The notes under the pieces were generated by a model that saw only the letters and a program-made list of their open reading frames with translations, had not been told where the DNA came from and searched no databases. From Hydrurus foetidus (taxonomy: Eukaryota): a stretch of 64,000 bases of DNA. The stretch is from NCBI GenBank assembly GCA_900617105.1, contig UYFQ01000609.1, forward strand, positions 1 to 64,000. Direction: 5' to 3'. Of this stretch, positions 3,110 to 64,000 are shown piece by piece (positions within the stretch are counted from its first letter, which is position 1; each line of letters begins with the position of its first letter). The translations under genes and the position numbers were made by a program.

Positions 3110-3296
3110 TGTAGCCGTCTGGGGCCCTCGGGACCTTGGACCCCATTCCGTCTGTTTGGGTTCATACCCAAACACACTGTAGACTTCTAGGTAGACTCCT
3201 AGCACCCTAGTAGGATGTTTCCCTGCTCATATATAGTTCAACAACCCCTTGTAAGCCTAACCCAACACCTCCTAGCCCTCTAGCCTAGTTCCTTCA
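3110..3296 (+). repeat. 3' LTR of the Gypsy element (~187 bp)
   Basis: Starts TGTAG directly after the PPT, contains ATATATA at ~3229 and ends CTTCA at 3296, where Copia-derived coding sequence resumes. The end point is inferred because the second LTR is not in the window. Confidence 0.65.
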
Positions 3297-6152: not shown

Positions 6153-6176
6153 TGGAATGCCTGCTCCAGTCAATTA

Positions 6177-6853: not shown

Positions 6854-6865
6854 TAATTCGACTGT
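6854..6865 (+). promoter_or_regulatory. non-tRNA primer-binding site complementary to LTR 6738-6749 (candidate self-priming PBS)
   Basis: TAATTCGACTGT is the exact reverse complement of ACAGTCGAATTA in the LTR. There is no TGG to match a tRNA CCA end. Confidence 0.7.
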
Positions 6866-6877
6866 CGAGGCATTGAT

Positions 6878-9800: not shown

Positions 9801-11702
9801 CAGTAGGAGCACCTCAAACTGCATCACACGAAGTAGCCGATGAGCAGGGGGTACCGGAAGATTACGGAGAGAACGGTGCAGTAGATACGGGTGTACTCGA
9901 GGAATCAGTCGTCCCAGCTGCGACACCACCTACATACGCAGCGTACGGACACAGGGTGGTGTCCAGAGTGGATCTTATGGACATGTTTAGATCAGACAAG
10001 CACAGTATGGCAATGCTGACACGAAACTACGACTCAGCAGGAGGTGACTGGGGGGAGTTCGTACTTAATATATCAGTAAACGACGCATTGAGAACGAGAG
10101 GCAAAGATGCCGAGACCGTAATACAGAAAGAACTGAGTCAGATGATTGGGAAGAAGGTACAGACGCCGGTAGACATACGAGGATTATCGTACGAAGAGAA
10201 GCGTTGGATCATTCGATCGAGCATGTTTCTAAAAGAGAAGTTCCTAGCAAGTGGAGAGTTTGAGAAGCTGAAGGCTAGACTAGTAGCGGGTGGTGACCAA
10301 CAGGACAAGACACTATATGATGACCTATCAGCACCAACTGTAGGGACCAGCTCGGTGTTCACCCTGCTGTGCATCGCGGCACACGAGGGACGGAAAGTCG
10401 CCGTGATCGACATTAGTGGGGCATATTTAAATGGGGACATGAATACAGGACTCACAGTGCATATGGACTAGACAAGAACATGACAGGTATGATGGTGAAG
10501 CTGTCACCAGGTTATGCGAAATACACGGATGCGCGTGGGTGCGTGGTGGTACGGTTGGATAAGGCCCTATACGGATGCGTAGAGTCAGCAGCCCTATGGT
10601 ACGAGAACCTCAGAGAGAGCATGAAGAAACTCGGGTATACTCCAAACCTGATAGACATATGCGTGTTCAACAAGACGGGCGAAAAAGGAGTGCAGTGTAC
10701 AATCGCAGTACATATGGACGATTCAATGATCACTAGCACTGACTCAGATATGATAGAGTTGGCCTGATAGAGCAGGCCTGACTCGTAGCAGGCCTGATCG
10801 AGAGATATGGGGACATCGTCCGCAAGGACGGACCGACAGTCAACTACCTGGGGATGGTATTCGACTTGACCGCGAGAGGTGTTGCTCGGGTGACTATGAC
10901 TGGGTATGTCAACGACATGCTAAGGGAAGTGGGGACATGCAAGGGTGCACGCACTCCCGCCACTGACGGGCTGTTCGACGTCAGACCCGATGCACTTACG
11001 GTGAGCGAAGGACTGAGGGTGATGTTTCACCGGCATGTAGCGAAGATGCTATATCTAGCAAAGCGTGCTAGACCAGACTGCCTGACTGCAGTTGCTTTCC
11101 TCGCCACAAGGGTCACGAAATGCACAGTGGACGACCTAGCCAAGCTAGATCGTCTCATGAGATACGTGTGGGCGACGAGAGATAGAGGTATAGTGTTCGC
11201 TCCTGGTGAGAAGGGGATCGTGGTAAGCGTGCTGATCGACGCAGCGTATGGAGTGCACGCGGATGGGAGGTCACACACGGGAAGCTGCATTGTGATTGGT
11301 GATAGCGGAGCAGTGCATTGTAAGTCTGCGAAGCAGCAGATCGTCACAAAGTCGAGTACGGAAGCGGAGCTAGTAGCACTGTCAGACTCAGCGAATCAGG
11401 CGTTACACCTGAGGAATTTCATCATAGCCCAAGGACACCCGTGCGAGCCTGTGACCATCCACCAAGACAACATGTCTTGCATGGCCCTCATCGACCGAGG
11501 GCGGTCCGCGGCGGAGCGTACGAGGCACATCTCTATCAAATACTTCTGGTTGAAAGAGAGGGTGGATACAGGGGAAGCTAGGGTGAAGCACCTAGGTACG
11601 AAGAACATGTATGCCAACATGTTGACAAAGCCGCTCCAAGGAGCTCAGTTCAAGGAAGAAAGAAAGGGGGTCACTGGGTGGCCGGATAACGAGTTAGCTT
11701 AG
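6878..11702 (+). pseudogene. Copia copy 2 gag-pol polyprotein with in-frame TAG (7844-7846), frameshift (~10465) and short duplication/frameshift (~10760-10800)
   Basis: Zinc knuckle CYACDGKGHYARNC; protease LLDNEAS; integrase SIDIMF..SDGEG..ERRIR; RT KARLVAGG, DISGAYL, LDKALYG and HMDD; RNase H DAAYG..SHTG..SSTEAE..QDN..ANMLTKPL. Confidence 0.92.
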
Positions 11703-26200: not shown

Positions 26201-29200
26201 CTGCTCTCACCTCCGTGCTGATGAAGTGTAGGGGTGAGGGTGGAGGGTGGAGGGTGGAGGGGTGGGTGTAAATGGAGGAGAGGTAGGAGAAAGTTAAGTA
26301 GCACACACTGGTCCAAGAAGAAGCTGTCTTTGAGTTTACTTCGCTTCCTTTCCTTTCTCTTCTCACGTTTCCTCCCTTCTCACTCTACTCTAACACCTCT
26401 TTTCTGTCGACAGTTCAACCAACGGGCAATCCCTCCTTCACCACTTCATCTTCTCTCCCCATAAACTTCACTCCCTCACTCCCTCCCTCCCTCCCTCTTA
26501 CCCTCCCTCCCTCCCTCTCCCTCTCTCCTTCTCCCTCCCTCCCTCCCTTTCATTCTTCCTTCATCTTACACTCACTACTTCCTTTTTACCCTCCTTCCCC
26601 TCTTTTCCGCTCCTTTCCTCCCTCTCTCCCTCATTTTATCCCCTCTCACTCATTCACTGTGATGACCTCATGATGACTGCTAGCTGCACTCACCTTCTCA
26701 TTCGGAGCACATCAAAAAACTCCTGGTCGCTTATTGTCAACTCTATTCTCTTTTCCATCTGTGATCTCCTATTAAAATGATATGACGCATGTCGAGGATA
26801 CAGCGTTAGATGGAGTCATACATGAAAGACGGAATGTCACATTTTGTGAGATAATGACCTTTGGTTTATCAGCAGGAGTCCTTCGTCTTCTTCTTTCTGA
26901 GCGTCTTTTCTCTTCCTGTACTCACTCATGCGCTTCATCATAAGGGTCTCATCTTCTACGTCTGATGCGATTATCACGGATATGATCGAAATTCAGTGAT
27001 TATTGTTGGTGAAATATTTCAGCTCAAGGAAATTGATGGATTGTCGCGGAGAGCCCTACTGTTCGGTATTACTGTGGGGAAAAAGACGTACCAGATTCAT
27101 AGTCAGACTCGTCTCTGACACCGTCCTCTTCCTCTCCTTCCCCCTCCCCTTCTCCTTCTCCTGCACCGTAACCTTCCCCATCGAAACCTGATGCACTTCT
27201 TTTCCCTGCCCTACTCCCGCTCCTACTCCTACTCCCACTCCCACTTCTCTTGAATGTCAGTGTTGATGCGCTGCTCTTTCTCTTGTGGACACTAGGAGAG
27301 AGCGCCTGTGTCTGTCTCTGTGTCTGTGTGCCTTCTAGTAAAGAAGGGGGAGGGGTAGAGCCCGATTTGAGATCGAAACTTGGACTGGAATTGCCCACTC
27401 CCATCACTTGATTGTTTGTGTGTCCGTGTGCACCGATCAGAGGAAGTGGAATCTGCATATCCAAGATCGAAGATCAGTCATTGATTGTGATAATAATTGG
27501 TGTTAGGGGTCGATCTCGTGTAGGGGTGATTCGTTGAAAAGAGGACCAATCAGAATGATTAGAAGAGGTGACAGAATCAAAGAATTGTGTGGAAAATAGT
27601 AAAGGTTGCTAATCAGAATACGGATTCAGATTATGAATGACGTACGAGGCATCTGAGAGCAGAATGAAGTAGATTTTTTTTAAGAACAATTAATCATTTA
27701 AAAGATTATCGAGAAACTCGAAGTACGAAAAACGAATACGAAAAAACAGTAGAAATCACGTATTCTGACCGTGGCACTTGGATCTGCCCCTAGGGATGAC
27801 TTGTGCCTATTAGGAGAGTGCGCGCGAGAATGTGTGGTGGAGTGGATGCGACTGTTGGCATTGCTGTGTGGGGGGATGGTGGGGATTGTGGGCAGTCTGG
27901 CTCTGCGGAAGTTGTCTTCAATAGACTGGATGACGGTTGATGAGGTGTAGAGAATTAGGAATGAGATCACATGCTGTGCTGTGAAACAGTCCAATTAAAC
28001 AGTGCATTGGGAAGAGTATTCTAGATCACTACACAAACCATAGCATGAGAGAGTGCTGTACGTCCGATAAATTGTAATCCACACACAGAACAGCTACAAA
28101 TGCTATTGAATCAAAAAGAGAGACCCTCTCAAATCACTTCGCTTAACACTCCAAACACTTCAATCTGATACAGACAGAGACAAGAGGGCACGCAGATGAA
28201 CAGTACAATTGCTGTCAAACTCTTCACAGAAGGTCTACTTAGTTGCAAGTTCATTTCTGACCTTTAATTTCATGTCTGCTTTTTCTTTCAAAGAGGTGTC
28301 CAACGCGTCTTGCACCCAGTAATAGGAAAATATATTTTGTTTTTTTATCTTTCTCACAACTAGTCCTAGAGATGTTAATTTCGTTCCTGTGAAAATCCCG
28401 GATAGACCGATTACGAAAGATCTGATAGAAGGTTTTAAGGAGAGAGGTAGTGGTTGTTAATATGATAGTGATTTGTTTGTGATCGCAGCGATAGTGATGA
28501 TGAAAGTGGTGATATGATATGAAGCATTGTCGTGTAAGTTACCCTGCGTAAGTAATTAACATATCAAGACAGCAGAATAGAAAATTTTTGAGTTTTTTTA
28601 AAGCGTGAAGAACAGCTAAATTGGATTCATAAAAATGCTAGTGGCATAATGCGTTGTGTGGTACCTCAGCATCGCGGGTGATACTGACTCCTCTTGGAGT
28701 ATCACAGACTGGGAGGGACCGGGCAGCTCGAAATCCTGTTAAACAAGGGACACAGAGGAAGGTGCGAGGTAGAGAGAGGTGCGAGGGGTGTGAGGTGAGT
28801 TGATAGGAGGATATCTGACAAAAATGAGATAATATACAGGATAAGATTAAATGAGTCGGCATGAGTCGTCGTAACGCAACACGATGGGAAAAGGTATCAT
28901 CACACATAAAATAACACGTCACTAAACAAACATCCCTCGCCCCCTTTCCTCCATCGCTAACCTGACTGGCAGACATGGTAACATCCAGGCTGGATGTGAT
29001 TGCTCCCAACGAGAGCTTGATGCCCACCCAATTCCCCACACCTCCGAAATGAAGTTTGATACGTACGGCAAGTACAGTGCCCCCTATTTTCAAAGGCAAA
29101 TAATATCAAGTAAAAGAAGAACTAAATGTAAAAGCTGAGCGATAGTCCTGTAAAATGATTTAAGATGTTAAAGAAGAATTTGCGATCCAGAAGACTGCAT

Positions 29201-41200: not shown

Positions 41201-44200
41201 CATCTAAAATTGAATTTCATGAGTGTTACACTGCGGAGTGTCGAGCCCTCTTGTACATCACAATAAATTTCAACGATGACTTTTCAGTCTTCAAGTTTCT
41301 CTCCATTGTCAATTTAGCACTGATAACTGCAAAAAGAAGGTTTTTCATTGGGACACTTCACTTTACAACTAATGTAATATAATGTCTTGGAGACTGATCT
41401 GTTTAATTCCATTTCGTCGAATTCAACTTACTCATAATCGAGAAAAGTTAATTTAATTCAAGATTAATTAATGTACCTGTAAATAGTGCACGACCTCTTT
41501 GAAGGACAATCCGATGAGACCCCTCCCATATGACACTGAGTGGTGACATTGACGGGGACAGGAATGAAGAGAGTGATAAGGGCAGTGAGAGGGAATGTGA
41601 CAGAGAGTGATAGAGATACAGTGAATTGAGTGATAGACGGAATTGTCGTCAGAATAAACTGCATCGCATGACATACCGTCAATATGCTACTACGTCCATC
41701 AGGTCAAGGTAACTGACACCAGCACACTACGCACCGAACAATGCATCGCACAGCATTGTATGACAATCAATCCACGATATTGCACTACACCCCCTCATCA
41801 GTTGGCATACGTGCGTGGCGTAACGTACCTCCTACTCTCAGTAGTTGCAGTACGGACATCCCATCCGTTCCTTCCAGCCGTATCCGGAATCCATCCTATT
41901 TTGTACGGATTCAATATTGCAGAAGATAGCAGCACGAATGTAAATGAGATGAAGTAAGATGAGGAGAAGTGAGATGAATTGAGATAGGATGAGATGGAGT
42001 GAGATCAAGTGGAATAGAAAAGAGAAAGAAGGGCAAAAGGAGAGGAAAAGGGTGAGATCTGATGGAAGTAGGGAAGAGGACAGGAGGAAAGAAGTAACAG
42101 AAGAAAAAGTAGAATAAAATCGAAAACAAAAAACTTCAAGGGAATGAGTAGGATCAAGGGAGTGAGTGACATAGAGAACAGTAGTGCGTGCGTGTGAATA
42201 ATAAGTACGTATCTCATCAAAAAGAGTCGTGTCATAAAATGAAGTCGTGTCATAAAATTTTGGATGAAGGGGACTACATTAGTAATTGCTATGATGAATA
42301 ATCGATGAGAAGGTCTAATTACGCTGACATACGCGGTAGGTAACTTGTCGATTCAAGCATCAATCAACCAACAAAATTGACAAGAATCAGGGAGATGTAA
42401 CAATTCAGACTCTGCAACCGCTCTTCAGGTATACGGAGATTAGGACGTACCGGAAATAATATCGTACTGCGAACTTCAACTTCAACTTCAACAGGATCGG
42501 GGAATGGTAGAGTGCTGAACTGGGAGAGAGGGAGGGATATGGGATCCAATCCAGACACTGATCGACGGATGCTGCAGATGATGAGAAGGGGTGACGAGAG
42601 TGCATTGCTGTCAGTCAGAAAACTGCATTCTGAAGAACAGCCATCACAATTGTCGATTATAACATGACGGTGATTACAATAGTGTCAAAAAAATTTGTTC
42701 ACTTAATTTTGTAATTGTTCACTTAATTTTGTGAAAGCTGAGTATGATGAACATGAACAAAGCCTCGACATCAATTTCTAATATCTACATCCTCTTTATT
42801 CAATAAGCAACCATCCCGCCATATTGTACAGACACACTTACACCACACAAACGCGTACGCACCTAGGCCTATCGAATAAAAAGGACCGTCTGGACGGTTT
42901 AACCCCCGAGAATGACGATTGTTTCCTGATGGCTTTTATGCCACTAAAGCCCGCTGCCGATTCTTTTTGCACTTCAAGTATCTTGGCGAATTTTATCCGG
43001 AGATAAACGGGGAAGGAATTGATCCCTAAAGGGGGTGCATGATAAATAGTGTTTTTCAAAGGACTTTCCTCATGGAACTGATAGCTATCTGTTAAATTAG
43101 TCGATTGCTTTATGTAGATATCAGTCGTACAGATAGGGTCACAAGCGAAGCATGAGGTATCAAGTCATGCACAACACATTAAACACTAAGCGAAGGAGTT
43201 GCTGCGACTCTTTTATTGCTTTATCCGACTATACTCAATTTGAAACGGAATCATCTTGACAGATCACGATAGCGCTTACGTTATTTGGTGTTAATCTTAT
43301 CTTATCTTGTCTTATCTTATCTTATCTTATCTTACTTATCTGATCTGATCTGATCTCATCTCATCTCATCTCATCTCATGTTATCTTATCTCATCTTATC
43401 TTATCTTATCTTATCTCATCTTATCTTATCTTATCTTATCTTATCTTATCTTATCTTATCTTATCTTATCTTATCTCTATCTCATGTTATCTTATCTTAT
43501 CTTATCTTATCTCATCTTATCTTATCTTATCTTATCTTATCATATCTCATCTCATGTTATCTTATCTCATCTTATTTTATCTTATCTTATCTTACTTATC
43601 TTATCTTATCTTATCTTACTTATCTTATCTTATCTTATCTTGTCTTATCTTATCTTATCGCATGTCATCTTATCTTATCTCATGTTATCTCATCTCATTT
43701 CATCTCATCTCATTCTTTATTTTACACTATACACTCAAAGTTCTATCAAAATCGTATCAAAATTGTATACGTACGTTCACCAACCTATGAAATCAATTTG
43801 TTCTGGAAGAAGTGTAACGTCTCTCGGCTTCATCGCTTTCTCGTAAGAAGCCTTGCAGTACTCAATGACTTGTACCAGACTTCTGTGCTTAACACTGTGT
43901 TGAAACATAAATAAGAATTAACAAGATGTAGCACTGTTGAAGGGATATTGAATAAGTGCTGATAAGATGTATGAAGTCATATCATATACATAATATCCAT
44001 CAATACTGCATCGAATAATGCTAATAAGACATGTTTGAAATCATGCAGTTTCAAAGAGGTTCATCTGATGGCGCTTCCATTATATTTGCTGCTGATTAGG
44101 AAAGTACTTCTAACTTGCAGTAATCATTGTCGATCATTAAAATCACTCTAAAACGCAGATTGTGTAAGTATCAAGGCACTGACGTAGCATTTGAAGAGAG

Positions 44201-47299: not shown

Positions 47300-47692
47300 T
47301 TCTTATCCGAGTTTCAGTTGACTGAAGAGAGGCAATTTGTCATTTCTCAACTAGCTCGAAATGTCTTTAGTACCCCATTAGACAGGATTGTGTAAAAGAT
47401 TACATCGAACGGAGTTGGACGTGCTAGAACCTATTTTGGACACAATTTCTGAAGAATTGACTTCTTACGCGCACATGTTGACAACAAGATCGCAATGCGC
47501 AGATTGGCCTATCGTTTGCTCTCAAGGCAGCTAGAGCTCTCTTGAGAATGATGCTCTTGTAAAGCTTGCTTTCAGTTTCCCTGAATAACATCTAGCAGAG
47601 CAGCCTAGCACGTAAATATAGCACACACACACACACACACGTCACACACGTTACATTTCCCACTTCGATCGCACGTACAAATGTACTGCTAG

Positions 47693-47870
47693 CCAAATAC
47701 CAAATACCAAATACCAAATACCAAATACCAAATACCAAATACCAAATACCAAATACCAAATACCAAATACCAAATACCAAATACCAAATACCAAATACCA
47801 AATACCAAATACCAAATACCAAATACCAAATACCAAATACCAAATACCAAATACCAAATACCAAATACCA
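47693..47870. repeat. perfect heptamer array (CCAAATA)~25
   Basis: 178 bp of uninterrupted CCAAATA units. Confidence 0.97.
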
Positions 47871-47911
47871 TCAGAATTTGGCGACTACAAACGACAGAAG
47901 AGAATACCTTA

Positions 47912-48132
47912 GGCCGCTCCTTATGCGCACCGGTTTTCGGCAAAGTTGGAATCGGTTTTCAATTAAATTTCCGACCGACCCAAGGTTTTCCGATTTTTTC
48001 GATTTCCGACAGCGTTTCGATCGGATTTTTGGACGATTTTCCGACCGAAACGCTGTCGGAAATCGAAAATTGGAAATTTAATTGAAAACCGATTCCGACT
48101 TTGCCGAAAACCGGCGCGCATGAGGAGCGGCC
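47912..48132. mobile_element. MITE, PIF/Harbinger (Tourist)-like, 221 bp
   Basis: ~60-bp terminal inverted repeats GGCCGCTCCT..ATGCGC.CCGGTTTTCGGCAAAG..GGAATCGGTTTTCAATTAAATTTCC; TTA on both flanks (47909-47911, 48133-48135); a second internal inverted repeat at ~48000-48065; no coding capacity. Confidence 0.85.
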
Positions 48133-48500: not shown

Positions 48501-50464
48501 ATGCCTGAAACGAACGAGCTCGGCGTAAAATTGGGGCTATTTTTTGGCTATGGATATTACTCTCTTTTGAGGAAATCATTTTCTGTCGCTGTGCCCTTCA
48601 TGAGGACCTCGTTAGGTCTTAGCAAAACGGATGTTGGCAATATTGCAACAAGCTTTTCCGTAGCTTACGGTTTGAGTAAGTTCCTAGGCGGAGTTGGAAG
48701 TGATTACTTTCCACCTGATGCGCTATTCGCGGTCGGTCTATTTCTCGCTGGGCTTTCTAATTTCGTATTTTCCATGTCAACAAACATGACCTCTTTATGC
48801 GTTATGTGGTTTCTAAACGGAATGGTACAAGGTATGATTTTAATCACAGAAGTCCAATGCAACCCGCCTTTCAAAGGGTGGGCGATTGCAATTAATAAGA
48901 TACTGAATAGATGGAAACGCAAGTAAATCCTCATCTTAGTTAATTTTACTCAGGACTTGGTTGGCCTGCATTATCTCAAATAGTAACGAATAATGTGCAT
49001 CCATCGCGGGCTGGAACCACCTGGTCAATACTCATCAGTGTAAGAGTACCTTTAGCGCAATTGAATTCTATACAACATGCAAGCTATTTACCTAAGGACA
49101 TGTTGGTGGATTAAATGATTTCACTTTTCAAGTGATCCACTATGAATATTTAGGGAGGTAATCTAGGCTACTTACTCGGTCCGTTCTTACTATTACCGCT
49201 TACAAAATTCGGATGGAAGGTATGGTCGAGATTGAAGTTGTGAGCAATGAGAATTCCTTCATAATGACCCTGCTCCTTTTCCTTCACAATTTCCGTTTTC
49301 CAATATACGAAAATAGATGCCTTTTCGTATCTGTGGAACAATAGGAATGCTACTATCCTGCCTCGTTTACTTAGTGCTATCTGCATGCAGTCATAACGGT
49401 GGCCGTGGAATCATCAGTACGGAGTCGTCTCTAGGAAAAAAAGATAATACGAAAAGAGAAAAGACTGACTCTACAGAGACCAGTGATCCCATTATCAAGA
49501 ACGGAAGCTCTCCGAATTCTGTGAATGTTGTATTGGAACGAGTACTGCGAGATAATGAGAAATTGAATGAAAAGAACAATTTTAGAGTAGATGTGAAAAA
49601 AGATTCAAAATCTCGTGCCCTTTTGAAGTGCACCAGATCTGTCAACCTGTGGCTCTTGATGATAGTAGGAGGGCTAACAACATTCGTGCTGAAAAGCATG
49701 GCCGATTGGACAGGGCTCTTCTTGATCGAATACTGTGGACTCAGTATATCTTACTCAACAGAACTGATGATTTGGAATGAGATAGGGGGCATGGTGGGAA
49801 CATTGCTGTGTGGGGTACTATCAGACTTCCTAGGGGGTAGGAAGTACCTGACATTATCCATATTCGTAGCTATTTGCGTTCCAGCTATAGCATTCTTTCC
49901 TACCAATGCCGCATTGCAGAACGCTTCTTCAACAACGGAAAACTTCTTAGGCTTTGGCGCATTGTATAACGTCATACTTCAAGATGGAATATCAACAAAA
50001 TTTACAATTCTCTTGATAAGTGAGACTCGATTGCTTTACCGAGCTCTCTTGGAGAAATTTTCCGGTTCTTTAGGATTATCGAGAATTTGTTTATTTTTCA
50101 TGGGATTTGGTATTAATGGACCTAAAACTCTTTTGGGCGTAATGGTACGTGATCTTGTTCCTCGGGAAGTTTCTGGCACAATCGGGGGAATATTTGGTCT
50201 AGTAGGTCAGCTTGGCGCATCAGCATCAGGAGTCGGTGAGTCGTACTTCTCGTATACGTACAGTCGTTGTATTCCCAATATTCATACTCTAACGCCTTCG
50301 ATTGTATTTTGTTAGGCTTAGGATTCGTACTTGAAGTCTATGGGTGGCAGACATTCATGAGTTTTCTGTTCTACGGAATCATAGCAATGGCCGTATGCCT
50401 CATCGTGCCAGTAGTGACGTTGAATTCTTCCCATGAAAAAACGTTTAAGACAAAGGATGATTAG
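48501..50464 (+). CDS. MFS organophosphate:Pi antiporter (UhpC/GlpT/SLC37-like sugar-phosphate transporter), 5 exons (48501-48831, 48954-49039, ~49153-49218, 49317-50235, ~50316-50464)
   Basis: GY..Y.L.RKSFS.A.P..AYG.SKF.GG..SD..W.LNG..QG|LGWP..G..W....S|GGN.G..DW..FL..E.GG..G....G..SD..INGP..G..GG..G..G. Confidence 0.88.
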
Positions 50465-50838: not shown

Positions 50839-51675
50839 TCACCAGGAGTCGTATAAAGTTTTCGCTCCGAAAGCGTCTCGTTTCATAATTTGCTTCTCCA
50901 TTTTGTAAGGAATTCCATCACGGTTCCCAATTATTTGCTTACCAGCTGCCGTGTATACCCGATCATTGATCCAAAGGGCATTCTTCCAGAGCTTTAATTC
51001 ATCTTTGATTACTAGCTCAAGATCTGGTTTCGTAAGAGAGCATAGTCTACACTCACCATTAACTAATATTCCCTTGTAGGACGATAAAGATTTCGTCCAC
51101 ACGACATCGCAACCTTGTAAGTATTCGAAGTCTGTTTCAATATCAGGAAGCAGCGTGTCCGAGATTTTGTACGATAACCGCTTGAGTTTTTCTTCAGTCT
51201 CAAGAAGTGGCCTATATAATTTCATAATGATGTTTTTCCCGCCGCTTTTTTCATCATTCTTTACAAATTCGTAAAATCGGTAGCGGAAAGTCCTTGAGAT
51301 ATCGTTCTCGAAATAATAGGATGCAATAACGATATTGCCTATGGTGGGATGTTGTTTAATTCTCGCAGAGACATATTCATGGCCACCGTCCTGTGCAGTG
51401 TATTTCCCAGCAGCTGCAGCAGAGGCAGCCTGCTTTCTATTGTCGTAAAGGCCTGTTATCCAGTTCCTACATTCTGCAGTATCAAATAGAGAAAATCAGC
51501 AGTGCTTTAGATCATGAGCGTTACGTATCAAGTACAGAAATATACCTAATGGGCTTCCATATTGAGCGCTTTTGACCCAGTTACTCATTTTCGAGAAAAC
51601 TGACATACTGACAGAAGGAGTTATCGAAAATAAAATCGCGAAAGCGATCAGCATTTTTCTGTCGAATGAAACCAT
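50839..51675 (-). CDS. CpcT/CpeT (T-type bilin lyase) / CRUMPLED LEAF-like protein with N-terminal signal peptide, 2 exons (51675-51546, 51473-50839)
   Basis: Spliced product MVSFDRKMLIAFAILFSITPSVSMSVF..PL|ECRNWITGLYDNRKQA..GGHEYV..FRYRFYEF..YL.GCDV.W..YKG..C..DE..L..LWINDR.Y..G..IIGN..PY follows the CpcT pattern W..G.F.N..QA / PYR.R / L.GC / DRG / WG..PF. Confidence 0.68.
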
Positions 51676-52081: not shown

Positions 52082-52828
52082 CTGTCGGCTGAATTAGAGT
52101 CTAATTCTCGACAGAAACGCCACGTCTCCCAGCTTTTCTGCGGTGCAGACGACAACATGGCTCACTCTAGATTGTGAGCTAAGTGTTTTAATGGGAACTT
52201 CCGTGAATCTCTGGGTTGTGAGCTACTACTGTAGATAAATAGTGACACTAACACCAGCAAAATGTATGGCTAATAACTCGCTCCTTAATGGCGACTCGAT
52301 TCGTAAAGTAATTTTTTCATGAAAGTTGTTTTAAATCAAACATAATTGACGCAACAAAGTTAAATCTTTTGCTGTAGCCAACCATTCCGACCATCTTTAA
52401 TACTTGCCATGGGGAACACTCCATGTAAGTTATCAGTAAAATTCAACCGATTTTTTGTGAACTTATGCGGGATTTGTAAGCTGATAATACCGGAATAGTA
52501 TTATAGACAGGAATTTTTCGAGATCGGTTGTTGAAATGCAATGCGTACGTACGCACTGAACATTCACTCTAACAGATACCGTGCAACTCAAGATATCGTA
52601 CGGGTACTGGGTCACCAGTCGGTGACCAACACCGTACGGTACGTAGCCGTTTTGCCGTTTTGTGTTTTGTGTCTCAACTCTCAACCCTGCGCATCTCAAC
52701 TGTACGATTCGATTGCGCATCTCATCTCCGATCGATCACAGACAGTTCCATCTTATCGTGAAAGTGTAATACAACAATCGAACATAGCTTGTCAATTGAT
52801 CCCCCAACAGTTAATATAAGCAACTACC

Positions 52829-53515
52829 ATGGCGGGTGAGGACGAGCTGTCTGATGAACAGCTGAAAGCTCTGTACGCTTGGATCGACGCTATACCTCTT
52901 AGTCGACCGAAAAGAAATATAGCGCGGGACTTCAGCGATGGTGTTTTGTTTGCCGAGGTGGTCGCAGCTTACTTCCCGCTTTTAGTAGAGCTGCATAATT
53001 ACACCCCCGCTAACTCTATGAAGCAGAAAGTGTACAATTTTGAGACGTTAAATACTCGTGTACTCAGAAAAATTAATTACTGTATACCTCGACCATCGAT
53101 TGAAGAAATAGTCAATGGCAGACCAGGATCAGTCGAAATTGTTTTAAATGCACTGCAATTTAAGATGGCAAAATACCGAGAGAAAAAGAATTCAACTGAT
53201 TCACCCCCCGACTCTCCAAGTAGATCTCAAATTAGAGATGAAGGTTACGCTAATGTGTCAACATCAAGACCTCCAGTAAAAGCGCCTACTTCAGGTAGCC
53301 GCATTGGAGCCAAGGGTGGTAATGATGTGTCGTCAAGTCAATTTGGTGGGAGAAATAATGTTATGGCGTCAGTGGATGAAGAAATACTAATCGAGAAGGA
53401 GCAGCAGATACGAGAGCTGCAGGAGACTGTCGAAATACTGGAACTCAAAATCGCCAAATTGGAGCAGTTGGTCAGGCTTAAGGATAATAAAATTGGAAAG
53501 CTACTGCAACGGTAG
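52829..53515 (+). CDS. SPEF1: sperm flagellar protein 1 (SPEF1/CLAMP), intronless
   Basis: N-terminal CH domain LYAWIDAIPLSRPKRNIARDFSDG..VELHNY.PANS..QK..N..TLN; C-terminal coiled coil EKEQQI.ELQETVEILELKIAKLEQLVRLKD.KI. Confidence 0.95.
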   Translation: MAGEDELSDEQLKALYAWIDAIPLSRPKRNIARDFSDGVLFAEVVAAYFPLLVELHNYTPANSMKQKVYNFETLNTRVLRKINYCIPRPSIEEIVNGRPGSVEIVLNALQFKMAKYREKKNSTDSPPDSPSRSQIRDEGYANVSTSRPPVKAPTSGSRIGAKGGNDVSSSQFGGRNNVMASVDEEILIEKEQQIRELQETVEILELKIAKLEQLVRLKDNKIGKLLQR

Positions 53516-54211: not shown

Positions 54212-55250
54212 GTCGAACTCTCAATATATTAGAGGACACTTGAATACACATAAGAAGGTACTTTTAAACACCTTCTGAGATCTCTTGGAAAGAGAATATT
54301 TGGCGATACCGGCTATTTGATTTTTGTGCTGCACTGTACGTCGTTGTTGAACTTACTTCAACTTTTACTATATCTACTGGTGCACCAACGAAAGACAGCA
54401 CCGTATTTTTTTCTCCTTATTCATCATTTTTGTGATTCAGCTTCCTCGATGATGTGCTTTCTAGAGTAAGCTTTGAATGCTGCAGTTTGAATGACCTGGC
54501 TGACACTTTCACTCCAGTGTTTAGCGATCGTTGGGACAGAATAGATCAAATAAACCGGTTTGGAAAACCTTGGGTAGGGAGAGACCAATGACCAGTGACC
54601 AGAAGTGGCTATGGAAACGAGTGTTGGAAGGAGTTGAAGAGCTGTGTGACAGAGAATTTATTTACTGCATTCTATTAATCTAATACTACGAGTGTGTGGC
54701 TTGTCTATACAGCCCATAGATAGCTACATCTATTGAAGCTGCATCGACTCAGTTACATAAAAAGGCGAGTAAATCACATACTTGACCGAAAAGTTGGAAC
54801 AGCTCTCTTAGGAATCATCAGTCCAAATTCGGGTCAGTGTGTGGGAACAAATTTGTAAGAAGATGGAAACGTACTGTGTGAAATATAACGAGGTGAATAC
54901 AATTGATAATCATGCTATGTGACTAATGTTAAGTAATGTCGTTAAGGGTTGGTTATTACCGGGCCGACGATATTTGTTTGAAGAGGGCTGCGTACAGCGT
55001 GAAATACGCAGAGGTGCGTGTACTTGATAATGTTGCTATGTGAATGTGAATCCGTATCGGTCGGTGACTTGGTGATATTGCTTAAAGCAACGTCACATCT
55101 ACTGCGTTAGACTGTATGCCCGTAAGTGCAGGCAATCTAAATATTCCGATCGATCATTGTGAAGGACAGCTACATTGAGTGACTCGCGACAAGTTAACTC
55201 ATGTAATTCATTGCATGTGCGGTACGATTAGTTCTAGCACCATCCTAGCG

Positions 55251-58200
55251 TTATTTGGAATATCCGACGAGAGTAGGCAAGGCTCCCAGCGCCTAAAGTT
55301 GACAGGAAGATCAGTTAAGGTTGACAAGCAAGCTTGTGTGTGTTTTCAAGATTGAGGATGCCGGGAGAGTTCGATAATGTATAGTGTCCAGAATGAAGTC
55401 GCCGAATCGCGTCACATCACATTACATCATATGTTGTAGGCAGTAAGATAGCGCACTTTCAGTAAGTGAAATAATGTGGAAAAAGGCCGAAACGAAACTT
55501 TTGACGGAATGAAGAAGGTAAAAGTACGTCACGCATAATTGCTCACCTCGTTTGCCGATCGGAGCAATGGCGACAGCAGCAGCTGAGGTGCAGCAGTGTA
55601 GAGGAAGCGATGCACATGGTAGAAGAAGTTGGCAGCGATGTGGTTGTGCGCGAATGGAGATGAGATAAACCGTTCACAACAATGAATTCCTCCTTAGTGA
55701 CGATGGTGTACAATCCATCTGCTAGGATGGTCCCTACTGTGGAGACCGTCTCCTCCCCTGTCACCGTCATGACGCAGTCGTTCACTGCCACCTGCGAGGC
55801 GTACTTAAGTGGCAGCGGTGAGGAGGTGCCGCATGCACCTGCTAGAAGGACGTGACTCTTGGTCATTTTGATGTCTCGACCGCTAGTGGTGGTGATGTGG
55901 ATGAATACAGCAGTGACCTTGTTGGCACTGTGAGGCACGAAGACCACTTCAGAGAAAGATATCCTGCCCGCAGCGTCAGCTGATAGCACGCGATCACCAG
56001 CCATGATTTGAGAGATTTGACGGTCCTCACCACATTCCAGTCTGACCGTCTCGGATCCAGCAAAACAATCAGCAGCTGAAGTTCCACTTGACGCTGGCAC
56101 AGCTTTAGGTAGCGGTGTAGCAGAAATTAGTTGAACCTTCACGCCAATTGCCGAGCAGACATTCAAATTGAAATCTAAGGACACTCCAGTCCCAGTACAG
56201 TCCGGTTGAAGGAAAGTGGTCGCTGTGCCAGAAGACTCTGTTGTGATAGACGATCATTGATGATTATGGGATATAACATAAAGTAGGTGAGTAGTAGCGA
56301 TTTAGACCAATTTTGTTTTGAGTTCTTCACCTTTGACAGCTGTAATTGATTTTGTCTCCGTGATGCATGTGTTCAAAGAGGCGTATTCTGCCATGTAGAT
56401 GGGGGCTTGGCAGGTTGGATCAGCATTCCTGTAGAAGCTGTGTTAAAGAGGTGGAAGGAAGTGCAGTGCGGTGGGTTGAGTATTAGTATCTCGTCTTCAT
56501 GATTTTTGCGGTGGCCATATTGACACATACTTTTTCTCTTGATTTTGAGTATGATGGTGCATTGCAGGGTCAACGCAGAACAATAGAATGACATGTCAAT
56601 TCAGAAAGGTAATGTCAGGTGTGCGAGAGAAAGGCGACAAGCTCCGACCTGCGACTGATAATATCCACAACGGAAGTAGGGACTCCAGTGGCACTTAGCG
56701 ATGATAAGGATGACTCAGTACAACTGCTCTTATAGTTGACGAGACTGGTGGGTGTTACCACAGTTTTGCACGTGGAGTCGGAGTAGTACGTAGTTGAGAA
56801 GGTAGAGTCGGTGGCCATGTACGTGACATATTTGCCATCTGGTTCTTTGTCGCAGGAGTGGAGCAGTAGCGCTTTTGCATACACTATAGAGGTGCAAGCC
56901 GCGTCACTGTACCGCGCCTTAACGAAGTAGTGCAGTGACGCGATCGGAGAAGCTGGTGGTACCGCAGAAGGGGCTGATGGAGCGAGTGATGGCTCCGTAG
57001 TAACCGCTGTTGGTGACGAGATCGGAGAAGATGGTGGTACCGCGGAAGGGGCTGATGGAGCGAGTGATGGCTCCGTAGTAACTGCTGTCGGTGATGCGAT
57101 CGGAGATGATGGTGGTAACGCAGAAGGGGCTGATGGAGCGAGTGATGGCTTGGTAGTAATCACTGTCGGTGATGAGATCGGAGAAGATGGTGGTACCGCA
57201 GAAGGGGCTGATGGAGCGAGTGATGGCTTGGTAGTAATCACTGTAGGTGATGAGATCGGAGATGATGGTGGTACCGCGGAAGGGGCTGATGGAGCGAGTG
57301 ATGGCTCCGTAGTAACCGCTGTCGGTGATGCGATCGGAGAAGGTGGCAATGCCATAGATGGTGCTAATGATGGGAAAGAAATTGTTGTACCCGCGACTGT
57401 TTGATACTTTACGCCTCCACTTAAACAAGCACCAATGGTGTAGTTGAAGACATTGTATCTGCCGGTGCAGTTAAACGAGGGACCATCCTTTGAGGAGTAT
57501 ATGTATTTCTTCAGAAAAACAGTCGACCCTAAAATTGAAGGTGAAACAAGTTAGTGACTGATGACTGATGAGACTTGGCATCGATCATGGAATTCGTATC
57601 TGCTTTTGTAGCGAACAGCGGAAACCAGCACGTCATCGTTATTTGCATAGCAACACACCCACGATCATTTTTATCTTTCATTTACTTTCTGGTATGATTG
57701 TCAAGGATATTCACCTGATATTTTAAGCACCGACTTTTCATAGCAAGTGTCGAGTGGAAGATATTCTGTCTTGTACACAGTCGTGGAGCATGTTGCATCC
57801 TTCTTGTTGTAGTAGCTACATGAGATGTGGAGAGGATAGGTGGGTCAGTCACTTACATGCTAGGAACAGTGGCTGCTTTTGTGCCACCCGACAGCATGAA
57901 GTGAGAAGAAGATATGATAGTGAGTGGTCAATGGCTGCGACGATAGTGCAGCGTGGGATTATGAGATGCAGATGTGCGGTGTAGGATAAGAGGATCAGAG
58001 ACGGTGAGAAGACATGGATATGGATATGGAGTTGGTAATGGAAATGGTAGGCTGGCTGACCTGGCCATGACGCACGAAAGACTGATGATGTGCACTGACC
58101 TGATACTCGCCATGGTGAGTGACGAAGGAGGAACACCATTCGAATTGACTGTAATCAGCTAGAAGAAACAGCGAACAGTCCAAAGACATTATGTCACATG

Positions 58201-61200
58201 TGCCCGTGTAGTCTAAGTAGATAGGTCCAAGCGTCGATACCGCGGTCGTGCACAACGAGTCGGAGTATTGTTGAGCGACAGTGGATGCAGTAGCGGTGTA
58301 CTTCACGAAATCACCTACACCTTCCAGGTGATAGTTGCAAGAGTTCAATGGATAAGACACAGCCGATGTAATCGTGGTGCATCTATCATCGCTGTATTGA
58401 GCTCTGACGAAGTATCCGCTCAGTTGCAACGTGAGTGCTGACGAGAAGGCGGTGGGGGCGAGTGACGGGACGAGACTTGCAGTGCCCGGGACAATTTGAT
58501 ACTTCACGCCACCACTGGAGCAAGCATCTATAGTTGCAGTTTTCATCGTGTATTCACCGCTGCAGTCACTAGGGATGCTTGAGTATTGTAGATGCGAGAT
58601 CGTCGATCCTGAAAAAGATTTTTTTTAGTTTTTAGATTTGTTGAACGTAATGTTGCTCGTTACACACTTACACATCTCACACGTGTCAGGTAACTGACAA
58701 GACATAGGAGGCTGCACTCACACACTCACTGATGCATAAGTTGCTGCACTCACACGCGTCCACACACACACTTGCACATAATCATCACTGGTGATTTGTT
58801 CACGACTGTCAGCCACCGTCACATTCTTCTCTATCTTTCGAAATGACTCTCACCTGACAATCTGAGCGTTGACATCGAGGCTGTTTCGCAGGTGTCGAGT
58901 GGTAGATACTCTGTCTTGTACACAGTCGTGGAGCATGTCGCATCCTTCTTGTTGTAGTAGCTATACGAGATGTGGATAGGATAGGTGGGTCAGTCACTTA
59001 CATGCTAGGAACAGTGGCTGCTTTTGTGCCACCCGACAGCATGAAGTGAGAAGAAGATATGGTAGGGAGTGGTATATGGCTGCGACGATAGTGTAGCGTG
59101 GGATTACACTGCACGATGTGATGTAGGATCAAAGAGGATCAGAGACACTGAGAATACATGGATATGGATATGGATATGGAGTTGGTAATGGAAATGGTAG
59201 GCTGGCTGGCCGGCCATGACGCACGAAAGACTGATGGTGGGCACTGACCTGATACTCGCCATGGGAAGTGATGAAGGAGGAACACCATTCGAGTTGACTG
59301 AAATCAGTGTCGTAGCCAAAGAATAGCCAGTGTTGACTGATTTGCATGTGCCCGTGAAGTCGGTGTAGGTAGGTCCAAGTGTAGATACTGCGGTAGTGCA
59401 CGACGCGTCGGAGTATTCCGTTCGAGCGATGGCATATGCAGTGGCGGTGTATTTCACATATCCACTCACCCCTAACGTACTCGTATAATCGTTGCAGGAG
59501 TTCAATGGATAAGACACAGCCGATTTAAATCGGCACATCTAGGTCCTGTATTGAGCTCTGACGAAGTATCCGCTCAGTTGCAACGTGAGTGCCAACGAGA
59601 AGGCGGTGGGGGCGAGTGACGGGACAAAACTTGCAGTGCCCGGGACAATTTGATACTTCACGCCACCACTGGAGCAAGCACCAACGGTGTAAGTTTCACT
59701 TGTGTATTCACCGGTGCAGCAATGTCAAAAGGAGTAAATGTCAATTTCGAGAGAGTCGATCCTGCAAAAATCAAAAACCAAAAAGTAATTAGATACTTCA
59801 AACTTCAAACTGAAATCGTGTCATACATACGTTGAGACACGATCGTAATACAATATTCGAACGTGCAGCCTCACACTTAAACACGCACACATACGCTCCT
59901 CTCGAAACAGACACACACCACGACCCATTAGAACTGAAGAAAAGAATGTCAATTGCATGATACGTAAACAGAAAACTTGTTTGTGACAGAAGACAAAAGG
60001 ACTTCTAGCATGATGCAATGACACACATGTGGGAACAAGTGCTTACCCTCAGTGATGCATTACTTGTTCCACACATATACAGCGTAACACACACACACAC
60101 ACACACTGGGATAACGGAGGAGATAAAGACAAGATACCGCTGTACTTAGACACACAATACCACTCGCAATCACATACACATTCGTCAAAATTGACAAGTA
60201 CTACATATCGATGAGCACACTTGCATTACTGATGATACAATTGCAATACTGATGATAAATTATCCAGGCCTTTCTTTCCATGTGATATCAAATAACGCCT
60301 ACCAGAAACTCTGTACGCCACACGAGAAAAGAATTAGGAGATTCACAACTGTTGAGTGTTTTGTATTCTGTCTTGTACACAGTCGTGGAGCATGTCGCAT
60401 CCTTCTTGTTGTAGTAGCTACACGAGATGTGGAGAGGATAGGTGGGTCAGTCACTTACATGCTAGGAACAGTGGCTGCTTTTGTGCCACCCGACAGCATG
60501 AAGTGAGAAGAAGATATGATAGTGAGTGATCAATGGCTGCGACGATAGTGCAGCGTGGGATTACAGATAAGGCAGATAGTGCGGTGTAGGATAAAGAGGA
60601 TCAGAGACACTGAGAATACATGGATATGAAATTGGTAATGGAATGGTAGGCTGGCTGGCCGGCCATGACGCACGAAAGACTGATGATGAGCACTAACCTG
60701 ATACTCGCCATGGTGAAGTGACGAAGGAGGAATTCCATTCGAGTTGACTGTACAGCGTAGTGTAGAAGCCATACGTGTAAGAGATGAGTCAACGCATGTG
60801 CCGTGTAGTCGAGAAGGTAGGTCCAAGTGTCGATACCGCGGTCATGCACAACGAGTCGGAGTATTCCGTTCGAGCGATGGTGTATGCAGTGGCGGTGTAT
60901 TTCACGTATCCACTCTCCCCTGACTGACTTTCATACTCGTTGCAAGAGTTCAATGGATAAGACACAGCCGATGTAATCGTGGTGCATTTATCGTCGCTGT
61001 ATTGAGCTCTGACGAAGTATCCGCTCAGTTGCAACGTGAGTGCTAACGAGAAGGCAGTGGGGGCGAGTGACGGGACAAGACTTGCACTGCCCGGGACAAT
61101 TTGATACTTCACGCCACCACTGGAGCAAGCACCAAAAGTGTAGGTTTCAATGGTGTACTCCCTGGTGCATAAGAAGTCACGAGGCGAGTACGTCAATTTC

Positions 61201-61680
61201 GACAGAGTCAATCCTGGATAAACCAAAAATCAAAAGTGGTCAGATAATTCAAACATGGATCGCGACATTTGTACATCAAGATGCACAGACATGGAACAGT
61301 CAGTGCTGTACCACTTCCATCATGTGCGACACAATTGCGCTACAATACACAAAGAAGCAGCCTCACGCGCACAGAGGCTCATACGCTTTTCTCGAGACAA
61401 ACACATACTACAACCAATTAGGACAGACGTAAAGAATATCAACCACGTCATTTATTGTGTAGGGGACGGAAGAGAAAACGATTTCTGACAGGATGCAATG
61501 TCTCACATGATCGCACACACGCACGCACTTTCATTGATGCTTCATTCGTTGCACACATACACCGCCAAACACATACATGCACGCACTCTCATTGATGCTT
61601 CATTCGTTGCACACAGATAGACACACAGACAGACAGACACAGACAGACAGACAGACACACACACCGCCAAACACATACAT

Positions 61681-61715
<35 letters not shown>

Positions 61716-64000
61716 AGATAACATACTAGATATGGGAAGAGTCACTCACTCACTCGCTCAGTATAGTAAACACATGCACGCACTCACGCGCTCACTCTCA
61801 GACACACACAATAATCCATTACTCGAAATTGGCATACACGACGTCAAGACAGAAGACAAGAGTACTACATATCGATGACGCACACTTGCATTACTGATGA
61901 TACAATTTAGAATTTAGATGCTAACATACACTCTGGCCTTTCTTTCCATGTGATATCACATAATGCTTACCGGAAGTTCTAAACGTTTCATGATGCAAGG
62001 AATCATCGAAGTAGCAAGTGTTGAGTGGCAGATATTCTGTCTTGTACACAGTCGTGGAGCATGTCGCATCCTCCTTGTTGTGGTAGCTACATGAGATGTG
62101 GATAGGATAGGTGGGTCAGTCACTTACATGCTAGGAGCAGTGGCTGCTTTTGTGCCACCCGACAGCATGAAGTGAGAAGAAGATATGGTAGGGAGTGGTA
62201 TATGGCTGCGACGATAGTGTAGCGTGGGATTACACTGCACGATGTGATGTAGGACCAAAGAGGATCAGAGACACTGAGAATACATGGATATGAAATTGGT
62301 AATGGAAATGGTAGGCTGGCTGGCCGGCCATGACGCACGAAAGACTGATGATGGGCACTGACCTGATACTCGCCATGGGAAGTGATGAAGGAGGAACACC
62401 ATTCGAGTTGACTACAGCTAGTTTCGTCGTTCCGTAGATGTAACCATCATCGCATGTGCCCGTGTAGTCTAAGTAAGTAGATCCAAGCGTCGATACCGCG
62501 GTCATGCACAACGAGTCGGAGTATTCCGTACGAGCGATGGTGTATGGAGTGGCGGTGTATTTCACGTATCGACTCTCCCCTGACTGACTTTCATACTCGT
62601 TGCAAGAGTTCAATGGATAAGACACAGCCGATGTAATCGTGGTGCATTTATCGTCGCTGTATTGAGCTCTGACGAAGTATCCGCTCAGTTGCAACGTGAG
62701 TGCTAACGAGAAGGCAGTGGGGGCGAGTGACGGGACAAGACTTGCAGTGCCCGGAACAATTTGATACTTCACGCCACCACTGGAGCAAGCACCAAAAGTG
62801 TAGGTTTCAATGGTGTACTCCCTGGTGCATAAGAAGTCACGAGGCGAGTACGTCAATTTCGACAGAGTCGATCCTGGATAAACCAAAAATCAAAAGTGGT
62901 CAGATAATTCAAACATGGATCGCGACATTTGTACATCAAGATGCACAGACATGGAACAGTCAGTGCTGTACCACTTCCATCATTTGCGACACGATTGCGC
63001 TACAATACACAAAGAAGCAGCCTCACGCGCACAGAGGCTCATACGCTTTTCTCGAGACAAACATAAACAACAACGTAAGCATAGAACTCGTAGGCGACAG
63101 GAGGCAAAACGATTTCTGACAGGATGCAATGACGCACATGATCGAGCAAATATGCGCGCACTCTCAGTGATGCTTAATTTGTTGCATACATATATCGCAT
63201 CACTTACACACACACACATGCAGAATATGACAGGCAGAATATAGGAGGCTGCACTTTTTCATACACTCACAAATACAAATAATAATCGAGACAGACATAT
63301 GCTACGATACTCATCAAAGGTGACAACCATAGATTGCATTTCTAATGAACATAAACATCTATATAATTGACTTGACAGACCTCCTAACTTTAGCATCGCA
63401 CTTCCATAGCAAGTGTTGAGTGGCAGATATTCTGTCTTGTACACAGTCGTGGAGCATGTCGCATCCTCCTTGTTGTAGTAGCTACATGAGATGTGCATAG
63501 GATAGGTGGGTCAGTCACTTACATGCTAGGAACAGTGGCTGCTTTTGTGCCACCCGACAGCATGAAGTGAGAAGAAGATATGGTAGGGAGTGGTATATGG
63601 CTGCGACGATAGTGTAGCGTGGGATTACACTGCACGATGTGATGTAGGACCAAAGAGGATCAGAGACACTGAGAATACATGGATATGGAGTTGGTAATGG
63701 AAATGGTAGGCTGGCTGGCCGGCCATGACGCACGAAAGACTGATGATGGGCACTGACCTGATACTCGCCATGGGAAGTGACGAAGGAGGAACACCATTCG
63801 AGTTGACTGAAGATATACTAGACGATTTCCTAGTTTCAGAATCACCAACGCATGTGCCCGTGTAGTCTAAGTAAGTAGATCCAAGCGTCGATACCGCGTT
63901 CATGCACAACGAGTCGGAGTACATTGTTGTAGCAATTGCATATGCAGTAGCGGTGTACTTCACGAAATAACCTACACTTTCCGGGTGATAGTTGCAAGAG
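55251..64000 (-). CDS. large Hog-type (Hedgehog/Hint) protein: tandem Cys-rich two-exon modules, mucin-like stalk, C-terminal Hint + SRR-like domain; 5' end beyond window; several apparent frameshifts
   Basis: Exons in transcription order: B5 (>64000-63758), A5 63481-63381, B4 62873-62363, A4 62086-61971, B3 61213-60698, A3 60417-60303, B2 59761-59249, A2 58960-58854, B1 58608-58100, A1 57815-57715, B0 57528-56649, A0 56437-56331, Hint exon 56237-55547, putative last exon 55292-55251. All have GT-AG borders with alternating phase 2/1. Confidence 0.8.
55547..56067 (-). other. Hint (Hedgehog/intein) autoprocessing domain plus sterol-recognition-like tail
   Basis: AD|CFAGSETV.L..G..I..I..GDRVLS..G...FSEVV..H..F..I.T..G..I.MT.SH..A..V..DCV..V..V..G.Y..VT....IVVNG, with catalytic Cys at 56067-56065 and TxxH = TKSH. 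After a 1-nt shift at ~55667 it reads SPFAHNHIAANFFYHVHR. Confidence 0.88.
56940..57350 (-). repeat. 78-bp tandem repeat (~5 copies) encoding a mucin-like P/S/T/A stalk
   Basis: 26-aa unit PPSSPISSPTAVTTEPSLAPSAPSAV. Confidence 0.93.
57715..64000 (-). repeat. tandem array of at least five ~1.1-1.7 kb exonA-intron-exonB cassettes
   Basis: Recurrent anchors, e.g. GTACACAGTCGTGGAGCATG at ~57773, 58918, 60375, 62044 and 63438, and near-identical ~280-bp B-to-A introns. Confidence 0.93.

Follow-up and report, generated by a model that had tools for sequence, protein, structure and literature searches.

In Drosophila Hedgehog, T326 and H329 act in the first step of Hog processing and D303 in the transfer step, and the D303H enzyme (D46H in Hint numbering) stays active and takes more sterols (PMC9163320); it is active in cells as well (PMC12054796). 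Secreted Hog proteins with diverse cysteine-rich N-termini occur in many protists, where the motif J cysteine is often replaced and the N-terminus evolves faster than the Hog, with Hoglet as the choanoflagellate example (PMC2362128). Cyanidiales red algae carry multi-copy genes that join Kelch, a Thr/Pro/Ala linker and Hint (PMC9812998), the function of which is still called unknown (PMC13353863). Hint expansions have been counted in diatoms (PMC12803021), and single mentions concern Ectocarpus and chromerids. Here we describe a Hog gene at positions 55251-64000, on the minus strand, of a 64,000-nucleotide stretch of Hydrurus foetidus DNA (GCA_900617105.1, contig UYFQ01000609.1, positions 1-64,000; this whole stretch is called the window below). 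Its exons encode a tandem array of cysteine-rich modules and a mucin-like stalk in front of a Hog domain with a natural histidine at the general-base position, which may cut itself off and leave the array tethered to a lipid.

The first-pass annotation of the window, made from the letters alone, had proposed a Hedgehog-type Hint domain spliced onto module exons, and this was borne out by the Pfam match, the catalytic residues and the RNA joints. The Hint exon (55547-56237; all coordinates of the gene are on the minus strand unless stated otherwise) matched the Pfam hidden Markov model of Hint, PF01079, with 80.4 bits against a cut-off of 29.7 (E 1.9e-22). Its best match by sequence to a solved structure was the engineered D46H Hedgehog Hint 6TYY (E 5.8e-09), with the window histidine aligned to His46. 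In a fold search with the model of a relative, L002, 6TYY came first (E 1.6e-12, root-mean-square deviation 2.1), and 6TYY and 1AT0 were the top matches. The Hint core occupies 55671-56067, with C1 at 56065-56067, H46 at 55930-55932 (D46 in Hedgehog), T69 at 55861-55863 and H72 at 55852-55854. It is followed by motif J and the start of the tail (55547-55669), where VVNG..SPF aligns to VVNS..SCY, a proline (55655-55657) replaces C143, and a conserved Asn-His precedes an amphipathic helix ending in H-R. The landmarks of the earlier reading, namely the repeated two-exon minus-strand units, the AD/CF junction, TKSH, GLYTIVT, IVVNG and the H..A..F..HR tail, are all present in the sequence.

Conservation was assessed in 150 parsed sequences out of 151 relatives, which are 37-100% identical to P0002 and, having been found by shared words, are biased to near kin; L012 was parsed at the wrong cysteine, and its row in this count and in the tree described below is an artefact. 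C1, P45, H46, N49, T69, H72 and C98 were invariant in 150/150 relatives, position 46 being His in every one of them as it is in the window. The invariance of C1, P45, H46, N49, T69 and H72 speaks for a working active site. Judged from these alignments, the first-step catalytic set (C1, T69, H72) looks intact, and by analogy with engineered Hedgehog the second step looks to have a proven substitute base in His46. Two further features are unmatched in the Hedgehog alignment: the near-invariant Asn-His just after motif J (55640-55645, His in 146/150) and the Cys79/Cys98 pair, invariant among the relatives. These may represent a catalytic residue and a disulfide peculiar to the family. The segment before C1 is a linker in which Ser, Thr, Pro, Gly and Ala fill a median of 75% of positions -14 to -3. 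The gene does not encode a Hedgehog protein proper: HH_signal was matched neither by the window exons nor by the complete relatives P0024, P0037 and P0109, and C1 is preceded by module 6 and the linker, not by a signalling domain. A self-splicing intein was also rejected, as the position equivalent to C+1 (C143, PMC12054796) is a proline preceded by serine, and only a 50-amino-acid tail follows.

The tail itself resembles that of a Hog, that is, a Hint domain plus a sterol- or adduct-recognition region (SRR/ARR), in being helical after motif J. In the model of L002 it forms helices at residues 334-350 and 358-374, with predicted local distance difference test (pLDDT) values of 82-91. The hydropathy of 13 tails checked in a 19-residue window was only 0.78-1.5, which indicates an amphipathic rather than a membrane-spanning tail, and a transmembrane tail was rejected on this ground. 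With regard to secretion, a crude test found a signal-like start in 29 of the 35 relatives that have at least 230 residues before C1, and by eye or by the same test such starts were seen in the close relatives P0084, P0024 and P0109, as well as in P0037 and P0127.

Read from 64000 down to 55251, the gene consists of a two-exon unit repeated with GT..AG introns, then the Hint exon and a short terminal exon; its 5' end lies beyond the window edge at 64000. Exon A1 (63758-64000), truncated by the window end, holds the first half of module 1 and exon B1 (63381-63481) its third sub-repeat. Exon A2 (62363-62873) is in frame and carries the end of module 1, a 25-amino-acid P/S/T/A linker and the first half of module 2, which continues in exon B2 (61971-62086, in frame). 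The same order of module end, linker and first half of the next module is found in exons A3 (60698-61213, modules 2 and 3), A4 (59249-59761, modules 3 and 4) and A5 (58100-58608, modules 4 and 5), and exons B3 (60303-60417), B4 (58854-58960, in frame) and B5 (57715-57815, in frame) belong to modules 3, 4 and 5. Exon A6 (56649-57528, in frame) contains the end of module 5, the stalk and the first half of module 6; the stalk (56933-57364) is made of five 26-amino-acid units, 144 amino acids in all, rich in Pro, Ser, Ala and Thr. Exon B6 (56331-56437) continues module 6. The Hint exon then supplies the last sub-repeat of module 6, a Ser/Ala/Pro linker, the site between Asp and Cys, Hint and the first helix of the sterol-recognition-like tail, and the last coding exon (55251-55292) adds 13 amino acids, which end the second tail helix, and the stop at 55251.

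The RNA evidence comes from two poly(A) runs, X21 and X22, of one sample under the same species label, about 6% of each run having been read. Splice joints were found at 55291/55546 (14 reads in X21, 8 in X22), 56237/56331 (19, 34), 56437/56649 (24, 23), 57815/58100 (21, 26), 58960/59249 (23, 12), 62872/63380 (4, 4) and 63481/63758 (15, 11), and B5 is joined to A6 in the X4 and X8 contigs. These joints and contigs indicate that the module exons are spliced to each other and to the Hint exon; the gene is real, transcribed and spliced. Most of the joints close to the Hint exon are borne out by this RNA. Exons B4 and A5 are adjacent in the DNA, because one short-read contig covers 58497-58933. 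The RNA of the gene and its plus-strand neighbour (52820-53515) lie on opposite strands. The 3' untranslated region runs to about 54800 or lower, the X4 contig being identical to the locus over 54800-55291. RNA coverage was also observed for about 800 bases beyond the stop on the same strand (54420-55250), which may be a long 3' untranslated region or partly that of a paralogue.

The register of the modules was read with the help of four complete, uninterrupted relatives (P0024, P0037, P0109 and P0127), which have a signal-like start, a module, a P/S/T linker, a second module and the Hog. A module extends from an SGYFV motif to GVKYQI, is about 175-185 amino acids long and has eight cysteines (counted in modules 2 and 6), and the sub-repeats of the form Y-x-D-x-x-C noted earlier were seen within the modules. 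This register gives six modules in the window, with the stalk between modules 5 and 6. The array of the first-pass annotation stood, as did its stalk of 26-amino-acid Pro/Ser/Thr units, but its order of at least five modules, a stalk-bearing one and a half module gave way to six modules, of which the sixth is whole and the first is cut by the window end, and the stalk had to be moved accordingly. A near-identical database protein, P0096, has two stalk units as against five here. P0109 and P0127, which lie on an 11-kb and a 38.6-kb contig, form uninterrupted frames of signal, module, module and Hog; they are possibly retrocopies, their relatives having introns.

The modules are of a known kind and belong with PF11912 (DUF3430, the Bad/Cfa proteins of Dictyostelium), of which they are distant members by the Pfam scores of relatives and a profile built from such regions. 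The PF11912 cut-off of 28.6 was passed by the Hog relatives L002 (32.1) and L004 (36.2), 2 of 15 scanned, and by P0131 (29.9) and P0132 (36.7), 2 of 15 in a second scan. A profile of 27 such module regions gave 35.8 bits with window module 2 and 40.5 bits with module 6, and in the control the best of 400 shuffles totalled -5.8. Bad proteins are described as having a signal peptide, at least eight cysteines and Y/FxxxxC motifs, BadA being of 19.3 kDa, and the eight cysteines and Y-x4-C motifs of the window modules fit this published description of PF11912 (PMC7886984). For the Bad family a MiAMP1-like beta fold has been proposed (PMC7886984). The module model of relative L007 is all-beta (pLDDT 85.6); with it, a Foldseek search returned nothing at E 0.001 or better, and in a second structure search the best match among 48,161 chains had a Z of 4.6 over 42 residues, which is not evidence of a new fold. 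Searching cluster representatives with exon A2 gave 52 matches, of which three (P0097, P0099 and P0103) were rejected as repeat artefacts, and in an atlas search with the same exon every score was below 0.9, so that these are leads only. By eye, the same module also follows an apparent sedolisin (S53) end in P0119 and P0120; Peptidase_S8 was weak for P0120 and gave no match for P0119. By analogy, the 5' part of the gene beyond the window could encode an enzyme domain.

The same Hog is found behind different cargoes. It follows PhoX (L001), a GDSL lipase (P0163) and papain (P0199), each above its Pfam cut-off, and by eye it follows superoxide-dismutase-like (P0073), binding-protein-like (L010) and SEA-like domains and Gly-rich linkers. 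Such varied cargo before one Hog is what one would expect of a portable cassette for anchoring or release. In a quick, unrooted tree of 66 rows, 12 cargo labels, assigned partly by eye, needed 20 changes where the minimum is 11, and a well supported 10-row clade around the window mixed module and Gly-rich cargoes. At 56070 and 56074, just ahead of C1, RNA reads depart from the reference into sequences that by eye match P0009 and P0002, so paralogues with different linkers exist in the same species. On this comparison of sequences the gene belongs to a multigene family, with signal-like starts in its complete relatives. The anchor idea could best be examined on L001 (3-2714), a complete-looking transcript with a signal peptide, PhoX alkaline phosphatase and Hog. 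The part of L010 before the Hog (45-1979) looks like a periplasmic binding protein and that of P0073 like a Cu-superoxide dismutase, and Pfam matched neither. A first metagenome scan with the single Hint yielded 285 pattern matches, none of which was confirmed; an alignment-based scan gave 21 loci, and residue counts from these were left unused, since the patterns demand PH or SPF.

The first-pass annotation had called the protein diversifying, which holds for mosaicism among the repeats and is unsupported in the sense of positive selection or switching. The intron inside the unit differs by 1.4-9.2% between repeats, and in 9 of 10 pairs by less than the synonymous sites do (6-28%). Most of the variation falls in the first sub-repeat of exon A and, in the other three sub-repeats, in the stretch that follows the second cysteine; the linker is nearly constant. 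Among repeats 2-5, exon A pairs 2 with 3 at 14 of 15 informative sites, and the intron pairs 2 with 4 and 3 with 5 at 13 of 16. These conflicting groupings mark the repeats as mosaics of the sort expected from gene conversion or unequal exchange. At 58149, 58889, 59299, 60819 and 60914, loose read ends lie at the edges of variable segments, so more variants exist. Summed contig depth was about 2275 in a module exon and 770-1150 in Hint, compared to 100-146 for unique contigs; although summed depth is no true copy number, this would hint at about 15-20 copies of the module and at several genes with the Hog. Positive selection on the modules is unsupported, as the ratio of nonsynonymous to synonymous change (dN/dS) was 0.41-0.64 in the alignable part in 10/10 pairs, two unalignable blocks being excluded. 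Switching or somatic variation also has no support, two variable segments being unchanged in the RNA of another study.

We consider the chances about even that the Hog of this gene cleaves itself between Asp and Cys1, probably leaving a sterol or similar lipid that would tether an ectodomain of at least six modules to a membrane. The proposal builds on the exons and their transcription, the Hint fold, the conservation of C1, T69, H72 and H46, the module family, the mosaic repeats and the other cargoes. In this model a signal peptide encoded upstream of the window, as in the relatives, would route the precursor into the endoplasmic reticulum. C1, aided by T69 and H72, would perform the N-S shift at the Asp-Cys1 bond, as their invariance suggests; H46 would replace D46 as general base, as it does in engineered Hedgehog; and, C143 being a proline, the nucleophile may attack the C1 thioester directly. 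The two amphipathic tail helices would recruit a membrane sterol, after which the Hog would be released and the module array remain tethered. The array may face the outside or a food vacuole, where its variable loops might bind or damage microbes, as is thought for Dictyostelium BadA; this last step is the weakest of the model. Taken further, the Hog would be a portable anchoring cassette in this protist group, much like the glycosylphosphatidylinositol (GPI) signal. We put forward only tentatively, as a possibility that falls short of probable, that it constitutes a second lipid-anchoring route beside GPI, in which a Hog that has a natural His base and lacks C143 cuts itself off many unrelated secreted proteins, leaving a sterol in its place, and here displays a recombining, Bad-like microbe-binding array.

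Several observations weigh against this proposal. In Hedgehog, C143 is reported to be required for processing in mammalian cells and for cleavage by dithiothreitol (DTT) (PMC12054796), and both C143A and C143D block processing. At the same position, Pro is found in 147 of 150 relatives and in the window, and Ser in the remaining 3, so a branched-intermediate step as in Hedgehog is impossible. The residue at -1 is Gly in only 9/150 relatives and Asp in the window, and the HWY motif occurs in 0/150. With D46 replaced by His, C143 by Pro, Asp at -1 and no HWY, the chemistry of Hedgehog cannot simply be assumed. On the side of the cargo, the PF11912 link is transitive: a module is split over three exons, Pfam was run exon by exon, the single module exons matched no family, and the link was reached through relatives. 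BadA raised bacteriolysis in extracts, whereas purified BadA alone gave no lysis (PMC7886984). The signal test flags intron-derived starts too, some of its 35 rows duplicate sequences, and any signal peptide of the window gene itself would lie outside the sequence examined. No single record spans the entire gene and no long read links all of its exons. These features lend themselves to other readings of the Hog. It may cleave itself with an acceptor other than sterol, either water, which would release the ectodomain in soluble form, or a coat or mucilage group (hydroxyl or amine), which would fix it covalently in the matrix. We regard this as rather unlikely, though C1, T69 and H72 are invariant while the second-step features differ, the Asn-His and the Cys79/Cys98 pair have no counterpart in Hedgehog, and sterol transfer is doubted in PMC2362128 where the tail differs, the term used there being adduct recognition region. 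The ionisable residue 46, which Hedgehog needs for transfer only and not for DTT cleavage, is nevertheless invariant here, and the two-helix amphipathic tail is retained and would suit a membrane lipid. Alternatively, the Hog may no longer cleave at all and form a folded membrane-docking or lipid-binding end, the precursor being held by its amphipathic tail. The effect of C143 substitutions in Hedgehog and the unconstrained -1 position would agree with this. We nonetheless find it quite improbable, given that C1, T69 and H72 are invariant in 150/150 while neighbouring surface positions vary, that many protist Hogs have another residue in place of the motif J cysteine, the first step there probably being independent of that cysteine, and that the stretch before C1 is a flexible S/T/P/G/A linker of the kind a cleavage site would be expected to have.

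A further reading concerns the copy rather than the chemistry. The splice joints of the first-pass annotation held. As assembled, the frame is broken in five exons, which that annotation left unmentioned. Frame-breaking lengths were found in 4 of the 11 complete module exons, namely A3 (breaks near 60810-60795 and 60712), B3 (short by one base), A4 (near 59718) and A5 (inside the variable segment), and the Hint exon shifts near 55669. The breaks might be real and the RNA derived from paralogues, this copy decaying within an active family. Most reads are only 90-99% alike to the locus (53/597 and 25/600 reach at least 99%), so that many come from paralogues or another strain, and the summed depth of contigs suggests that similar copies are numerous. 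An added base was seen at 55669 in only 5/15 and 8/18 RNA reads and in contigs, and at 59718-59719 in part of the reads and in contigs; the breaks of exon A3 had no matching read indel among the rows listed. At 60331 the added base was present in 4/8 and 8/8 RNA reads and in contigs, and an indel cluster at 58158-58199 (exon A5) in reads and a contig. The spliced X4 contig matches the locus exactly for 492 bases, across the last exon and the 3' untranslated region, and then runs into the Hint exon, where 223 bases show 16 differences and one gap. The variable segments of B1 and A2, present in reads, recur letter-perfect in RNA of another study (compared by eye); two stretches of 451 and 551 codons are free of stops; the dN/dS given above signifies constraint; and clusters of indels in repeats would be expected if the consensus had been poorly polished. 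We thus hold decay of this copy to be decidedly unlikely and the breaks to be likely consensus errors.

Elsewhere in the window, a Ty3/gypsy-type retrotransposon pol (reverse transcriptase, RNase H and integrase by Pfam) lies over two frames at 187-2693 (+). Two related copia-type copies in opposite orientation occupy 3272-6173 (-) and 6857-11702 (+), the plus copy with RVT_2 and a zinc knuckle, the minus copy fragmented. A nuclear gene of the CpeT/CpcT bilin-lyase family (50839-51495, -) stands beside an MFS transporter gene (49317-50315) and a CH_2 domain gene (52820-53515). Long simple-repeat tracts of pentamer and longer units, typical of the introns of this genome, were seen at 25641-26271, 43344-43914 and 47596-48085. 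A tRNA search within the 64-kb window found none.

Compared to the known systems, the window Hog shares with the C-terminal part of Hedgehog (Drosophila 1AT0; D46H mutant 6TYY) the Hint fold, C1, T69-x-x-H72 and a helical tail after motif J. It differs in its natural His46, Pro143, Asp at -1 and lack of HWY, and neither the visible part nor the complete relatives have a signalling domain. With the non-Hedgehog Hogs of protists it has in common a probable secretion, a cysteine-rich N-terminus, a replaced motif J cysteine and a stalk-like linker, its N-terminus being a long tandem PF11912 array instead. Of these accounts, the main text of PMC2362128 makes no mention of stramenopiles or heterokonts, and its section consulted here none of PF11912, PhoX, lipase or papain cargo. 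Proline is absent from the motif J replacements listed in that source, the alignments of which may show His46. The first-pass annotation had not recognised the architecture as a described family. The general plan of ectodomain, Thr/Pro stalk and Hint has a precedent in red algae (PMC9812998), and secreted cysteine-rich Hogs have theirs in many protists (PMC2362128). In the literature searched, which excludes most subscription papers, neither PF11912-Hog proteins nor this Hog with enzyme cargoes nor a Hog with natural His46 turned up, and the main text of a preprint on Chrysophyceae genomics matched none of six terms. If the proposal is true, this would be the first natural D46H enzyme found described, performing Hedgehog cholesterolysis in one step, and a living model of pre-Hedgehog Hog. 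A natural D46H/C143P site bears directly on whether lipid transfer depends on C143 and the branched intermediate, and on the nature of the acceptor in organisms other than animals. If sterols go onto enzymes such as PhoX, a general route of surface anchoring would have been overlooked by GPI-centred annotation, and such Hogs might yield protein tags that lipidate themselves and tolerate a wider range of sterols.

The modules themselves resemble the Bad/Cfa proteins of Dictyostelium in being all-beta units of about 180 amino acids with eight cysteines and Y/F-x4-C repeats, probably secreted and found in large paralogue families, though this homology is distant and was reached via relatives. Bad proteins consist of a signal peptide and one domain, whereas the window gene has six or more tandem modules, a stalk and a terminal Hog. 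The tandem mosaic array would extend this social-amoeba family to a long tethered form, by which an aquatic protist might recognise microbes. The candidate immune receptors of brown algae, of the LRR-ROCO and NB-ARC-TPR types, reportedly have intron-bounded repeat exons that are reshuffled, with variable residues in a constant frame. Reshuffled intron-bounded repeats are common to them and the window gene, but those receptors signal and use other repeats, and the window gene is without a signalling domain. The GPI-anchor signal, finally, is a removable C-terminal unit that a transamidase exchanges for a glycolipid, joined as an amide. If the Hog leaves a sterol behind, it resembles this signal in being a removable C-terminal unit swapped for a lipid on many secreted proteins; it would differ from it in that Hint catalyses its own exchange, with no transamidase, and in that the product would likely be a sterol ester rather than a glycolipid amide.

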